From NCBI GenBank assembly GCA_040222015.1, contig JAVJWO010000040.1, positions 71,964 to 135,963 on the forward strand: 64,000 nucleotides of DNA, in the 5' to 3' direction. The notes below the pieces were generated by a model. That model searched no databases. It was not told the origin of the DNA and worked only from the letters and a program-made list of their open reading frames with translations. Source of the stretch: Coleofasciculus chthonoplastes F2-STO-03 (lineage in GTDB: Bacteria > Cyanobacteriota > Cyanobacteriia > Cyanobacteriales > Coleofasciculaceae). Of the stretch, positions 5,640 to 13,415 are shown piece after piece (positions within the stretch are counted from its first letter, which is position 1; every line of letters begins with the position of its first letter). The translations under genes were made by a program, and so were the position numbers.

Positions 5640-7076
5640 TTACAGCTTTAGAGCTTTGTGCCTATAGTGATTCCCAGTTTCTTGGAGATCTAGAGCGATT
5701 CGTTCTCGCAATTTCCAAGGTAGCAAGACTTCTACTTCTGCACCTAAAGCCCGTAAGCGCCGGATTACGTGATAATCGTTAACCCGGTATTGATCTTGGT
5801 AGTAGCCATCATCGGGAGAGCGATGTTGAAGAATGTCTAGCCGAGTATTTTTGTGTTCGGGATTGGGCGTATGTTGTTTGATTAAACGGGTGGCTTGCTG
5901 ATAGTTAATCGGGGCAAAGGTGTGATGCAAGAACGTACCTCGAATATAGTGATCATGAAACTGTTGGTTAAACCGTAGTACCATCAACGCCGATGGTTTA
6001 TAGAAATCAAATCCCCAGGCTTGTTTCAGCTTCGTGTGAACCGTTGTGGGTGTGGGCAATTGGTTCTTCTTGTATTGCTCCTGCAACAACTGGGGGACGC
6101 GAGTATCTGTCCAGTTTAATGGCATCAACCGCTCAGAGCAAATTCGGTCGAGGCGATAATTGTGCCAGTTGATTTCGCTTTTGGGAGTGCTGCCATAGGC
6201 ACATAAGTATTTTGCCCGTTCCATATAATAGATACAAACCGGATAGACAACGCATTCTTTGATTAAACCCAAATGAGCGCTGTGATAAGTCATGAGTAGG
6301 GGAGACATTTGTCCAGAGTCCCAAATGTCCTGCAATTGTCCCTGAAGTTGATCCACCTGATCTTGTTTTTGGGTGGATTCGGGGACTAAGTAATCAATGT
6401 ATAAAAAGACACGATGAGTATCGTCTTGGGGATGGGGAGAGATTTGCTCAGTTAAGAATGGGATATTGGGGTCGAGAAAACTTACCATTTCCAAGGTTTC
6501 TGCCAAATAAACCTGCTCTTGAGGCGTCAGATTGCTGTTAGAGATTCGGTTTTCTGGTTGTTGAGAAATGGGCAAGACTTGGACGCGACGGTAGTTCTTG
6601 CTTCTCCCGGTTGAGTGAGGAACTCGTTGCAGCCAGTTGAGATCAACCAGTAAGTCTAAGTCACTCTGAAGGGATTTACGAACTTGAGCAAATAGCCGTT
6701 CGTGGAGTAAGTTTTTCAGGTCAGAATCAGAAATTGACAGGTGTTGTTGTAGGGATTCTTGCCATTTATCAATGGCTATATTCACTTCTTTGAGCCATGT
6801 TCTGGTGGTTTTCGTGCAGGCACAGTTAGGTTCGTGGTGCTGGAGAATATCGTTTTGTTTCTCATCCTGGTGCGTTGGGCTGAAGAAGGCTTGACGCCAA
6901 TCCGCGTAGGTGAATCTGTCGGGCAAAGCCGCGTATCCCTGATCCCCATACAGCCAGCGCAGCCAAACCCATAATCTCACCGCCCGGGTGAGATGGTGAT
7001 TTTGTTGCAAAAGTCCTTTGGCTAATCGTTGCAGGAGTTCAGGTTGGGGGGGATGGCGAAAGAATAGATCAGACAT
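5640..7076 (-). CDS. WYL-domain CRISPR-associated regulator (TIGR03985-like)
   Basis: YPVCIYY..RAKYLCAYG, WHNYRLDRI and WGFDFY motifs; divergent from the cas genes; ATG at 7076 preferred over the ORF-track start. Confidence 0.88.
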   Translation of the reverse strand: MSDLFFRHPPQPELLQRLAKGLLQQNHHLTRAVRLWVWLRWLYGDQGYAALPDRFTYADWRQAFFSPTHQDEKQNDILQHHEPNCACTKTTRTWLKEVNIAIDKWQESLQQHLSISDSDLKNLLHERLFAQVRKSLQSDLDLLVDLNWLQRVPHSTGRSKNYRRVQVLPISQQPENRISNSNLTPQEQVYLAETLEMVSFLDPNIPFLTEQISPHPQDDTHRVFLYIDYLVPESTQKQDQVDQLQGQLQDIWDSGQMSPLLMTYHSAHLGLIKECVVYPVCIYYMERAKYLCAYGSTPKSEINWHNYRLDRICSERLMPLNWTDTRVPQLLQEQYKKNQLPTPTTVHTKLKQAWGFDFYKPSALMVLRFNQQFHDHYIRGTFLHHTFAPINYQQATRLIKQHTPNPEHKNTRLDILQHRSPDDGYYQDQYRVNDYHVIRRLRALGAEVEVLLPWKLRERIALDLQETGNHYRHKALKL

Positions 7077-7119
7077 CAGTTTTGGTTTTGTTGAGTGTGG
7101 CTTATAGGTTATCAAGTAT

Positions 7120-7152
7120 CGGAAGGGGGTGCTTCCGCAGGGGTGGCATAAT
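7120..7152 (+). promoter_or_regulatory. Inverted repeat CGGAAG-N6-CTTCCG next to an extended -10-like TGGCATAAT (candidate WYL operator and cas promoter)
   Basis: Palindrome at 7120-7137 and CATAAT at 7147-7152 between the divergent WYL and CARF genes. Confidence 0.4.
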
Positions 7153-7285
7153 TTTGGGTACAGAGGCGATCGCGCCCTCGACTCGTCCCCCTCTCAATCC
7201 CATGGAGATAAGTTGGATTAGAGTGTTAAGGAAGAGCGATCGCCTATCTCACTCCAGCAGCGACGTCATACACAGGTTAGCCACT

Positions 7286-10853: not shown

Positions 10854-11441
10854 ATGATTACCACTCGCGAACACTATCAAAAAATGACGGCTGAAGAATA
10901 CTTAGAATGGGAAGCCAAGCAAGAATTTCGCCATGAATATATTGACGGCGAAATTCTTGCTATGACAGGAGGAACTCTTCCTCATAATGACATTGCCCTT
11001 AACTTGTACAGGACTTTATATCCTCATATACGTCAGAGGGGCTGTCGAGTTAATGTGTCAGATGCGAAAGTTCAGGCTCGTAAAAATAGTCGCTATTTCT
11101 ATCCCGATTTAGTTATCAGTTGCGATCCTGATGATTTGAAAGCTCGCGATTTTATTCAAAATCCGAAAGTTATTGTTGAGGTTCTTTCTCCAGGTACAGC
11201 CAATTACGATCGCACGAAAAAACTCAAGTATTATCGCCAGATTCCGAGTTTGCAAGAATACGTCTTAGTGGATTCAGAAGAAATAGTAGTTGAGGTTTAT
11301 CGTAGAGGAGAAGGTAAGATGTGGCTTTATTATGAGTATGAAGCTGGGGAAGCGATCGCTTTAGAAAGTATTGAGTTTGAGTGTGCGATCGACCTGCTGT
11401 ATGAAGGTGTTAGTTTTGAACAAGAGTTAGAGGATAAATAG
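10854..11441 (+). CDS. Uma2 family (DUF820) endonuclease-like protein
   Basis: RHEYIDGEILAMTGGT, YFYPDLVISC, VEVLSPGT and YRQIPSLQEYVLVD. Confidence 0.93.
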   Translation: MITTREHYQKMTAEEYLEWEAKQEFRHEYIDGEILAMTGGTLPHNDIALNLYRTLYPHIRQRGCRVNVSDAKVQARKNSRYFYPDLVISCDPDDLKARDFIQNPKVIVEVLSPGTANYDRTKKLKYYRQIPSLQEYVLVDSEEIVVEVYRRGEGKMWLYYEYEAGEAIALESIEFECAIDLLYEGVSFEQELEDK

Positions 11442-11480
11442 AGATTAAGTTAATTCACTGAATCATAAGGAAACTGAACT

Positions 11481-11765
11481 ATGAATCCTAAGCATATTGA
11501 CAAAATTCCCGATAACAATAACAGAAGATAGATCGCACCTTACAACTTTGTGGAACTTCCCGATAAAGTTGTTAAAGCTGAACCGTTACCGAGTGGCGAT
11601 CGCCATCAACTGATTAACCCAGTGCGTCTAATTGTACATCACTACATTACCTATGATGATGATGGAGTAGCTCGTATCTCTCTAAGTCGTCTTGTCAACA
11701 TAACTACTAACAAGGAATCAATCAATGCTTCCCAAACATCTCAAAAAAGTACCGGAAGATCGTAA
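11481..11765 (+). pseudogene. Chimeric remnant: N-terminus of a Cas7-insertion RAMP (TIGR03986-like) joined to the C-terminus of a second Csx19
   Basis: MNPKHI...[16 protein letters not shown], then [25 protein letters not shown]; TAG at 11529-11531. Confidence 0.8.
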
Positions 11766-13415
11766 TGCGATCGCACCGTACAATTTTGTCGAATTACCTG
11801 AAAAAGTGGTAGAAGCAGAACCTCTACCTGACAATGACAGATATTGCCCAAATCGTCATACTGGTCAACTTACATGCACACTGATCACTGAATCACCTCT
11901 GTATATTCGGTGTGGTTTAACTCCAACTGACTTCGCCAATTTTGGGGATAAAAATAATGAAGATTTGACTCCAGAGCAGCGCCGTAAACGTGCAGATTTC
12001 TTCACCAACCCCGCTAATCAGCGTCCTACTCTGCCTGGTATAGCAATAGACACATCGATTAGGACGTTCTGCACCATTGTAGAGACGCGCCATGGCGCGT
12101 CTCTACATAAATGATGTGTCCTAACAGCCATGGCGGTTGCTATAGTAGTTTAAGGGGATTGTTGCGGACTTTGGTAGAAATTGTTAGCTTTGGTAAGCTT
12201 GAGCAGGTATCTGAGCAACAACGATTTTTTTTCCGTGCGGTTGCTGCTGACAAAAATGAACCGTTAAAAAAAGAATATGAAAAGTATCTAGATAAGGGAA
12301 GAAAGGTTAAAGCTGGTTATCTTACCAAGGAAACTGATGGTTGGTACATTCGTCCGGCACTTTCTATTGAGGATAAACCATTCGTTTGGGTTGAAGAAAA
12401 AGACTTGTGGGGTAAAATTACTGAACTCATCCCCATGAAATCTTCCGACTACCGCCCACAATATAAATACAATATCAGTTTTGGGAATCTGTATTCTAAA
12501 AATTGTCGTCGGTTTGCTAAAGATGTCAGCAGTGACTGTGAAGCTTACAAATATAGGGGTGTATTAGTCACGAGTGGCAATATGTTGGAAGCTAGTGATA
12601 ATCCAGATAACCTCCAGCGCAACAATCACTGCCTAATTCGAGAACCTGACACCAATGCCGAACTCCTCAAGATTAGCGATGATGCCATCGAGCATTACTG
12701 CCATGCTTTAACCACCTTTCAGAAAGGAAAATCACCTTATGAGAAAAACCCATTTAACGAAAACTTGGGAGTTTTAACACAGGGTCGTGCTATTTTTTAC
12801 TGTCAGCCACAGCAAGTAAAAATCGTAACTTTATTTGGTCAAAGTCCAAATTTTCGTATTCCCTTCTCTTTTACAGGTGATGGACGTGCGGCTTCAGCAG
12901 TTGATTTTATTCCCGATTATTTACACAACTCTGAAATCTTAGATATGGCTGAAGCAATATTTGGCTATGTTAGAAATGAAAAACAGGATAAAAATCAAGC
13001 GCGTGCTGGACGTGTCTTTATCAGTGATGCCATCTGTGAAAGAACGGCTGGTGATGATATCTGGTTAAAAAATGACCCAATTACGCCTAAGATTCTAGCT
13101 AGTCCTAAACCGACTACATTTCAGCACTATTTGGTTCAAACTGACCCAGAAGCTAGAAAGTGCGAATTAAAGCACTACGCCAATAAGCCAGAAAAGGAAA
13201 CAGTCATCCGAGGACATAAGCTCTACTGGCACAAAGGATGTTCACCTTCAATTGTTCTTAAGGATTCTGAAGCTTCAGAAAGCCAAACCACTCAGATTAA
13301 GCCGATTAAAGCTGGAGTCTCTTTTACATTTACTATCGATTTTGAGAATCTTAGTGATGTGGCAATCCAGCTTTTGCTAGACCTCCGAAACCACCAAAGC
13401 GTCAGTGATAAGTAA
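11725..13415 (+). pseudogene. Cas7-insertion RAMP (TIGR03986-like), split by a MITE and 3'-truncated
   Basis: [50 protein letters not shown]; sequence diverges after FENLSDV at about 13361. Confidence 0.88.
12041..12142. mobile_element. 102-bp MITE with TA target duplication and a central 30-bp perfect palindrome
   Basis: GG-TA-[TAGCAA...TTGCTA]-TA-GTAGT; removing it restores CCTGGTAGTAGTTTA (PGSSL); palindrome at 12078-12107. Confidence 0.88.

Follow-up and report, generated by a model that had tools for sequence, protein, structure and literature searches.

The type III-D operon and its intact sister

The 64-kb window analysed here is a stretch of the genome of the cyanobacterium Coleofasciculus chthonoplastes F2-STO-03 (contig JAVJWO010000040.1), and the locus under study, at positions 5640-13415, holds genes of a type III-D CRISPR-Cas (clusters of regularly interspaced short palindromic repeats, with their associated proteins) operon. 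Genes were called from a listing of open reading frames (ORFs) and from hidden Markov model (HMM) scans of the window, and the extents of damaged genes were taken from tblastn. In type III-D order, the HMM matches identify a WYL/TIGR03985 gene, a CARF nuclease, Csx10(Cas5)-Cas11, Cas7-2x, Csx19, Uma2 and a TIGR03986 Cas7-insertion protein (Table 1), which bears out the gene content and order given in a preliminary description made from the sequence alone. The full order of nine genes recurs in about 65 loci of other cyanobacteria, and is thus far beyond chance. In the window, seven of these nine have been truncated or lost and a complete functional set of subunits is lacking. WYL and Uma2 are the only undamaged genes, as had been claimed; WYL matches its counterparts in the intact relatives L081 and L001 in full, and Uma2 that of L081 (loci are cited by number). 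We regard it as very probable that the region is what is left of a type III-D CRISPR-Cas effector operon on the chromosome that was inactivated recently.

Related loci were collected with the Cas7-insertion protein (the insertion read through) as query against one genome per species, which gave 80 loci. The best of these, L001 from Coleofasciculus sp. D1-CHI-01, shares 91% protein identity with the query and is colinear with the window at 92-94% nucleotide identity, with the same left flank and a whole operon. The blastn alignment of the window to L001 breaks at 8280, 10249/10250, 11595 and 13362 and at both edges of a 104-nucleotide (nt) insert. Public contigs of four metagenome runs, aligned over the region, gave the first sign of a closer, undeleted relative, and an exact-protein look-up with Uma2 found the sister locus L081 (GCA_040223775.1, contig JAVKFO010000056.1); the locus in a Logan assembly of SRR26209086 (L082) is identical to it. 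L081 and L082 are colinear with the window at 98.0-99.5% nucleotide identity, and the only gaps are the four lesions described below. L081 shares with the window its flanks (a HEAT-repeat protein, a protein binding cyclic nucleotide monophosphates, tRNA-Arg and a PemK/SocA pair), WYL, Uma2 and a scar near 11600, but has nine whole genes, no miniature inverted-repeat transposable element (MITE) and no 9-kb type I restriction-modification island after tRNA-Arg. A pair of strains about 1% apart, one with a complete and the other with a dismantled type III-D system, is a clean natural experiment in which every lesion is mapped to the base, and could be used to gauge the cost and benefit of the system and the role of WYL and Uma2 when these survive alone.

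The operon of L001 encodes WYL (491 amino acids, aa), CARF joined to a Card1 endonuclease in one ORF (534 aa), Cas10 (550 aa), Cas7 (220 aa), Csx10-Cas11 (522 aa), Cas7-2x (489 aa, two-domain), Csx19 (207 aa) and the Cas7-insertion protein (725 aa). In L081 the corresponding lengths are 552 aa for cas10, 222 aa for cas7, 523 aa for csx10-cas11, 485 aa for Cas7-2x, which has two RAMP stretches, and 725 aa for the TIGR03986 protein. The PADLOC models Cas10d, Cas7_IIId, Cas5_IIId and Csx19 match the intact set of subunits at E values that range between 1e-37 and 1e-202. L081 Cas10 (Cas10d, E=4e-154) carries the motifs IHADGNGMG and GGDD, the full-length Csx10 protein of L081 matches Cas5_IIId (E=1.9e-180), and full-length CARF relatives match Card1_endonuc and PADLOC CARF4--CARF_PDDEXK (E=2.2e-149). 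The CARF/PD-(D/E)xK protein is related to the DUF1887 proteins 8q3y-8q44 of the PDB, and a PDB sequence search gave no match for Csx19. Neither L081 nor L001 has a triple fusion of Cas7, Cas5 and Cas11; in both, cas7 (220-222 aa) is an ORF of its own, distinct from csx10-cas11 (522-523 aa).

The short ORFs of the window are, by comparison with the sister, fragments of these genes, and their annotation is corrected in this sense. The preliminary description had named as a refutation that close relatives might hold the same short ORFs as conserved genes; the outcome favours its reading, as the relatives carry full-length genes in their place (about 65 loci). They include a CARF_Card1 protein without its nuclease domain (7286-8320), a single-domain Cas7 (9477-10253) and the C-terminal part of Csx10 with a Cas11-like tail, for which the listed ORF is 8632-9477 and the frame is open from 8322. 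Csx19 falls inside an ORF at 10150-10782, a 71-codon ORF at 11550-11765 ends in a second Csx19 C-terminus, and the TIGR03986 gene is split over two frames (11725-12114 and 12111-13415).

Three deletions, a MITE insertion and an older scar

Relative to L081 the window has suffered three deletions (2,961, 730 and 598 nt) and one MITE insertion of 104 nt. Each deletion was sized by alignment to intact III-D loci, a check that the preliminary description had proposed, and the joins it had placed at about 8280, 10250, 11600 and 13361 (J1 to J4) are real breakpoints with respect to intact relatives, located within a few bases. Its count of at least four deletions holds for three of them; the join near 11600 is shared with the intact L081 and L082, and the fourth lesion is the MITE.

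J1, with a microhomology of 1 nt, removes CARF codons 333-426, all of cas10, all of cas7 and codons 1-124 of csx10-cas11. The CARF nuclease domain is severed right after GFEFDV and runs into an out-of-frame tail of 13 codons with its stop at 8320, while the csx10-cas11 remnant is left without a native start codon and is homologous sequence short of a whole gene: its match to TIGR02674 is confined to the C-terminal part (model positions 290-395) and at 60.3 bits stays below the cut-off of 177.3. J2, again with 1 nt of microhomology, costs cas7-2x its second Cas7 domain and csx19 its first 16 codons. What is left of cas7-2x is its first Cas7 domain, with a stop at 10251-10253, and Csx19, deprived of its own start, still scores far above the TIGR03984 cut-off of 35 bits. 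J4 (microhomology GTGG) removes cas7-insertion codons 512-711 and leaves the last 46 nt of the gene out of frame; the protein is still recognised by TIGR03986 (cut-off 161.35 bits, model positions 78-480 of 568), with tblastn coverage of residues 1-105 and 106-511 of 725. The Cas7-2x double fusion and the Cas7-insertion subunit are present in L081 and the window keeps half of the first and 511 of the 725 codons of the second; also gone are Cas10, one Cas7 and the N-terminus of Cas5, the loss from the Cas7-insertion protein being its C-terminal third. The remnants contain no further frameshift or gap, and some 8 kb of flank align to L081 without an indel, from which it follows that the damage is recent and restricted to this locus. 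Logan contigs from run SRR26209069 reproduce several of the joins: L084 (2,448 nt) is 100% identical to window 8180-10627 and spans J1 and J2, and L083 (1,393 nt) is 99.9% identical to 10693-12065, covers J3 and ends inside the MITE, whose left edge it contains.

The MITE, previously placed at about 12041, is real. It lies at 12040-12143, has a TA target-site duplication and the ends TAGCAA/TTGCTA, and its empty site in L081 is CCTGGTAGTAGTT; contigs of three metagenomes also have the MITE-free site and skip the 104 nt. The insertion shifts the frame of the cas7-insertion gene after codon 105. The element is short and non-coding and exists in many copies, its depth in metagenomes being 50-200 times that of its flanks, and one copy, 82% identical, lies in L001 at 16511-16613. 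These features, together with its target duplication and the unoccupied site in L081, are those of a MITE; the terminal inverted repeat is only 6-7 nt long and no parent insertion sequence was identified. The core is a perfect palindrome of 28 nt, GTAGAGACGCGCCATGGCGCGTCTCTAC, at 12079-12106. This palindrome occurs again with 2 mismatches at 42902-42929, in the region of a histidine-kinase ORF and without the remaining MITE, and is extremely abundant in related metagenome contigs.

No cas10, cas6, cas1/2 or CRISPR array was found anywhere in the 64-kb window, in agreement with the preliminary description. The absence of cas10 is the result of J1. However, the intact loci L081 and L001 have no cas6, cas1/2 or array less than 10 kb away either, and of 85 scanned sequences (84 loci and the window) just 10 show an array-like repeat. 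Because the intact sister and most related loci also lack cas6, cas1/2 and an array, their absence is not decay, and to be without an array is characteristic of this chromosomal III-D family, which is typically an array-less effector module and is presumably fed by CRISPR RNAs (crRNAs) made elsewhere.

J3 is not a lesion either, because the intact L081 and L082 share the join; a remnant ORF of 94 aa is called there. The join is marked by a 14-nt microhomology, GGCGATCGCCATCA, which is centred on the highly iterated palindrome HIP1 (GCGATCGC). When L081 was tiled against all loci it proved to be L001-like up to about its position 9617, where identity to L001 drops from 94% to less than 83%, then closest to L051, L026 and L065, and L001-like again at GGCGATCGCCATCA. 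The stretch in between comprises the 3' part of csx19, Uma2 and the first ~128 nt of a cas7-insertion gene, with L051 8943-10128 as the nearest match to the cassette (85% nucleotide identity), and in the window the csx19 sequence from about 10455-10470 onwards belongs to this cassette allele. Metagenome contigs of related strains jump from 10454/10458 to 11595 and represent the cassette-free allele. The right end of the cassette is a pseudo-fragment of about 40 codons with an in-frame TAG; the sequence that follows it (11609-11765) overlaps the start of the cas7-insertion gene, is 92% identical to L001 9871-10041 and contains direct repeats D1 and D3, which are 78-87% identical to 10687-10757. 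The tiling shows that a csx19-Uma2 cassette was imported from another III-D allele, with one crossover homologous and in frame within csx19 and the other illegitimate at HIP1. This import duplicated the 3' end of csx19 and left behind a dead cas7-insertion start, and broke no gene. Such a pattern is consistent with homology-facilitated illegitimate recombination, and the HIP1-centred scar is a lead worth a proper survey.

Uma2 itself is a full member of its family (PF05685, cut-off 27 bits, model positions 2-167 of 172), and its protein is 100% identical in the window, L081, L082 and L083. A Uma2 gene also lies between csx19 and the cas7-insertion gene in at least 13 other loci, L003, L007, L050, L051, L053, L060, L061, L065, L068, L071, L073, L074 and L079 (at about 8930-9960; 1324-1908 in L071), and downstream of the cas7-insertion gene in L024, L026, L028 and L072 (about 11940-13130). 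L051 has two copies, and most loci have none. In type III-D loci Uma2 behaves as a mobile accessory cassette; in Microcystis it has been noted among the accessory genes of type III-B clusters (PMC11855584).

The left breakpoint of J2 falls within a HIP1 octamer, between GCGA and TCGC. The three deletions have six breakpoints in all, of which this one is at HIP1 (chance about 4%), and both sides of J3 are also HIP1. The octamer is found exactly at window 10249 and 11595-11608 (L081 8663 and 10743). With a HIP1 density of about one per 1.1-1.4 kb, these positions are suggestive of HIP1-associated illegitimate recombination at J2 and at the cassette scar. A model drawn up with L001 only, in which 10250-11600 was either a foreign 'B' patch in an 'A' locus or the outcome of two deletions between tandem loci, was dropped because L081 shows J2 to be a plain 730-nt deletion and J3 an older scar.

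Table 1. Features of the type III-D locus and its right border (window positions; a dot marks features without strand).
Feature	Position	Strand	Evidence
HTH-WYL/TIGR03985 putative regulator, whole	5640-7115	-	TIGR03985 291.6 bits, cut-off 60
CARF/PD-(D/E)xK remnant, codons 1-332 of 426	7286-8280	+	CARF_Card1 match; tblastn 99.4%
Deletion junction J1	8280/8281	.	2,961 nt gone relative to L081 3737-6697
csx10(cas5)-cas11 remnant, codons 125-523 of 523	8281-9477	+	TIGR02674; tblastn 97.7%
cas7-2x remnant, codons 1-257 of 485	9477-10249	+	RAMPs 81.3 bits; tblastn 1-258/485
Deletion junction J2	10249/10250	.	730 nt gone relative to L081 8667-9396
csx19 remnant, codons 17-193	10250-10782	+	TIGR03984 128.7 bits; tblastn 99.4%
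Uma2-family PD-(D/E)xK nuclease, whole, in imported cassette	10854-11441	+	PF05685 131.6 bits; PADLOC PDC-S03
Pseudo-fragment, 5' end of second cas7-insertion allele	11483-11608	+	64% identity to Cas7-insertion residues 1-40
Junction J3, old recombination scar	11595-11608	.	14-nt HIP1-centred microhomology
Duplicated 3' end of original csx19 allele, pseudo-fragment	11609-11765	+	TIGR03984 model 139-169
cas7-insertion (TIGR03986), codons 1-105	11725-12039	+	HMM; L081 alignment
MITE-like insertion, 104 nt	12040-12143	.	Empty site in L081
cas7-insertion, codons 106-511	12144-13362	+	TIGR03986 240.6 bits; 99.3% to L081
Deletion junction J4	13362/13363	.	598 nt gone relative to L081 12406-13003
tRNA-Arg(CCG), right border of locus, kept in sister strain	13594-13666	+	
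Variable island: hsdM, hsdS, hsdR, YgjP-like peptidase	13671-22661	+	Context, outside CRISPR locus

Loss of the operon and its surviving genes

In the Synechocystis III-Dv system the Cas7 domains cleave RNA under the guidance of a 37-nt crRNA, Csx19 is needed for assembly, and an HD-less Cas10 with a GGDD motif makes cyclic oligoadenylate (cOA), which activates an ancillary nuclease (PMC11026444). The intact operon, as found in the sister, encodes a divergent HTH-WYL regulator, a cOA-sensing CARF/PD-(D/E)xK nuclease, an HD-less Cas10 with the GGDD cyclase motif, Cas7, Cas5(Csx10)-Cas11, Cas7-2x, Csx19, the accessory Uma2 nuclease and the Cas7-insertion subunit. By analogy with Synechocystis, its complex would bind crRNA supplied in trans and cut complementary RNA, and cOA made by Cas10 would signal to the CARF nuclease. 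In the window strain, with seven of nine genes destroyed by three short-microhomology deletions and a MITE, no interference complex can form, and after the first inactivating hit the remainder may have decayed neutrally under the usual bacterial deletion bias. The gene identities and the intact sister agree with the preliminary description in so far as it saw a dismantled type III-D(v)-like RNA-targeting operon beside tRNA-Arg and a variable defence island; its further view that the loss was stepwise has no intermediate state to support it. Within species, loss or pseudogenisation of CRISPR-Cas operons is frequent, and taken alone this is an ordinary case, one more pseudogenised example.

Several points weigh against this view of recent inactivation and neutral decay. 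Between 8281 and 10249 the ratio of non-synonymous to synonymous differences is 17:14, which gives no sign of relaxed constraint and would fit a very recent loss without proving it; a relaxed-selection test from such counts against L081 was set aside, since the differences are too few and are affected by recombination. The data fit more than one order of events, and selected as well as neutral loss. Misassembly had been named earlier as what might undo the reading, and an independent assembly does span J1 and J2, but neither J4 nor the right edge of the MITE is spanned by any such assembly. Furthermore, SRR26209069 may be the window's own source data, in which case its contigs exclude an assembler artefact but do not constitute a second isolate. 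A search of public runs with words across the J1 junction listed nothing, and an exact-product look-up of the 434-aa Cas7-insertion fragment found nothing. Finally, the search for cas6 and an array covers the 64-kb window, and crRNA or cas6 may exist elsewhere in the genome.

Lesions are also present in the loci of other species. Four independent deletions run across the 3' part of CARF and the 5' part of cas10 (about 2300-5500 per locus) and leave cas7 through to the cas7-insertion gene intact (L006, L021, L027 and L031), one of them, in L006, giving an in-frame CARF::Cas10-C fusion ORF of 414 aa; CARF is frameshifted in L047 and L070. Among 65 informative loci, six of eight lesion events fall on CARF/cas10, which make up 31% of the operon length, and only two in the remaining 6.5 kb (binomial p ~0.013, calculated post hoc and with kinship ignored). 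This clustering, which hints that the signalling arm tends to be the first to be lost, is the most interesting side result of the study and is worth a proper survey.

It is possible, as a tentative alternative to neutral decay, that the loss was selected, and that the first decisive hit took the CARF nuclease and Cas10, the signalling and toxicity arm, for instance on account of self-targeting or of the cost of abortive infection, the other lesions following later. J1 takes exactly the CARF nuclease domain and cas10, and the clustering of lesions on the same two genes in other species points in the same direction. However, the statistic was drawn up post hoc without control for phylogeny, the compared loci are for the most part metagenome-assembled genomes, and CARF is the most divergent gene, so that the detection of lesions is biased towards it. 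In addition, the four lesions in the window may have come in any order, and without an array there is no self-targeting spacer to look for.

A broader form of this idea seems doubtful to us, namely that J1 is one case of a recurrent, selected decay of III-D systems, in which the cOA arm (CARF/PD-(D/E)xK and Cas10) is excised first and Cas10-less RNA-binding backbones are left, with HIP1 sites as the preferred breakpoints for rearrangements and for the movement of Uma2. If true, the way in which the Cas10-less type III-E effectors arose would have a natural parallel here. Four other species still carry such backbones intact.

The WYL gene matches PADLOC HTH-WYL (E=1.9e-176) and is a full-length member of TIGR03985, its Pfam WYL and WCX matches being sub-threshold. 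It is a 491-codon ORF as in L001, and the gene as called in L081, whose 478 residues correspond to window 5640-7076, aligns to it along its whole length at 97.5%. A WYL gene lies upstream in about 45 of the 80 loci, and by its likeness to sll7009 it is a putative regulator of the adjacent cas operon. We think it unlikely that WYL, and perhaps Uma2, were kept by selection for the sake of other loci, with WYL acting in trans on a further locus of CRISPR or other defence genes and Uma2 working alone as a nuclease, as the preliminary description had in part proposed for the regulator. Both ORFs are whole, the Uma2 protein is unchanged from that of the sister, and 16 synonymous against 12 non-synonymous codon differences in WYL give a rough ratio of non-synonymous to synonymous rates near 0.25; moreover, regulation of CRISPR loci by WYL proteins is known, an instance being sll7009 as cited in bioRxiv 10.1101/2023.12.07.570523. 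On the other hand, the probability that a gene of 1.4 kb is spared by chance when four lesions hit some 12 kb is roughly 0.6, which makes chance escape likely. The differences in WYL arose mostly while the locus was still intact and lie in clustered gene-conversion tracts, no other target locus for WYL is visible in the 64 kb, and among the 65 related loci WYL is often missing or truncated beside intact operons (L009, L016, L051 and L053). Retention of the two genes by selection is thus possible and unsupported.

The differences between the window and L081 are tightly clustered (5691-6837, and 18 mismatches in 54 nt at 9669-9722) in otherwise near-identical sequence, and look like gene-conversion tracts. 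The 3' half of CARF and part of cas10 (window 7725-8281; L081 3000-5400) are closest to Kastovskya L007 and Phormidium L022, at 86-93%; against L001, the nearest relative otherwise, L081 ~3200-4000 gives either no match in blastn or identities of 69-75% at most, and the sequence beyond gives 79-91%. The stretch is an in-frame allelic replacement, and the locus an allelic mosaic formed by ordinary recombination. It is very unlikely that J1 and J2 arose together, when a foreign fragment of 1,970 nt (8281-10249) replaced 5.7 kb through double illegitimate recombination. The fragment diverges by 2.0% from L081 and 4.1% from run X1 as against 0.3-0.7% in the immediate flanks, but 18 of its 39 mismatches to L081 lie in the cluster at 9669-9722, which starts and ends away from the junctions, and similar clusters in WYL (6099-6120 and 6799-6837) argue for ordinary gene-conversion mosaicism. 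A single import of 8281-10249, suspected because run X1 diverges by less than 0.5% in the flanks, was rejected because the mismatches to L081 are clustered and do not track the junctions.

That the joins are artefacts of assembly or of chimeric reads, and that the real genome holds an intact operon, is scarcely credible, for although all four metagenome runs show only the undeleted form at J1, J2 and J4 and the J1 words were listed in no public run, those metagenomes are of different strains (0.4-8% divergence), L084 and L083 reproduce J1, J2, J3 and the MITE edge at 99.9-100% identity, junction microhomologies of only 1-4 nt mean that the joins are not repeat collapses, and three artefacts together with a true MITE and its target duplication within 5 kb are implausible.

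Neighbouring features and known systems

Directly 3' of tRNA-Arg(CCG), a block of 8,991 nt (13671-22661) stands in for 171 nt of the 99%-identical sister, and neither an integrase nor attL/attR-type repeats were found around this 9-kb island. The PemK/SocA-Panacea pair beyond it (22675-23758) is present in both strains. The remainder of the 64 kb is chromosomal housekeeping DNA, with infC, kaiA/kaiC, cellulases and a histidine kinase. An ORF of 160 aa at 37132-37614 on the minus strand covers only the middle of the class-III aminotransferase model (122-284 of 403) and may be a gene fragment. Tandem repeats of 24 and 46 nt that contain CCTAAACCCGCCCCTACAATTA lie in intergenic sequence flanking an aminotransferase gene (46774-46881, 46911-46957 and 48601-48666).

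As in degenerate CRISPR-Cas loci generally, deletions and a mobile element have inactivated cas genes that a close relative keeps; the present case differs in that every lesion is base-resolved against a sister about 1% diverged, and in that no array is involved. Some likeness also exists to the type III-E effector gRAMP/Cas7-11, as Cas7-2x and the Cas7-insertion protein have weak HMM similarity to it and the window remnant, like III-E, has no Cas10. However, the Cas7 genes of the window are truncated and unfused, and nothing points to a Cas10-less effector that works.

Other cyanobacterial III-D loci (for example L001, Kastovskya L007 and Coleofasciculaceae L051) have the same order of CARF, cas10, cas7, csx10-cas11, cas7-2x, csx19, in some cases Uma2, and the cas7-insertion gene, and differ in sequence (44-93% identity), in the presence of Uma2 and in their mosaic alleles. 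A known system for comparison is the III-Dv locus of Synechocystis sp. PCC 6803 (CRISPR2; sll7067-sll7063; PDB 8S9T and related entries; PMC11026444), which shares the HD-less GGDD Cas10, the Cas5-Cas11 fusion, Cas7-2x, Csx19 and the Cas7-insertion subunit in the same order. Homology to the Synechocystis chains 8s9t_A and 8s9t_E is detectable but remote, with E values of 1e-12 to 1e-18. The ancillary effector is a CARF/PD-(D/E)xK nuclease here and Csx1/Csm6 there, and the present locus has a WYL gene upstream, whereas CRISPR2 has no such regulator. Unlike the Synechocystis locus it has no adjacent cas6, adaptation module or array, it has Uma2 inserted, and in the window it is broken. The first Cas7 of the present locus is separate, in contrast to that of Synechocystis, and because cas7 is not fused to cas5-cas11 the accurate label for the system is III-D, Dv-like.

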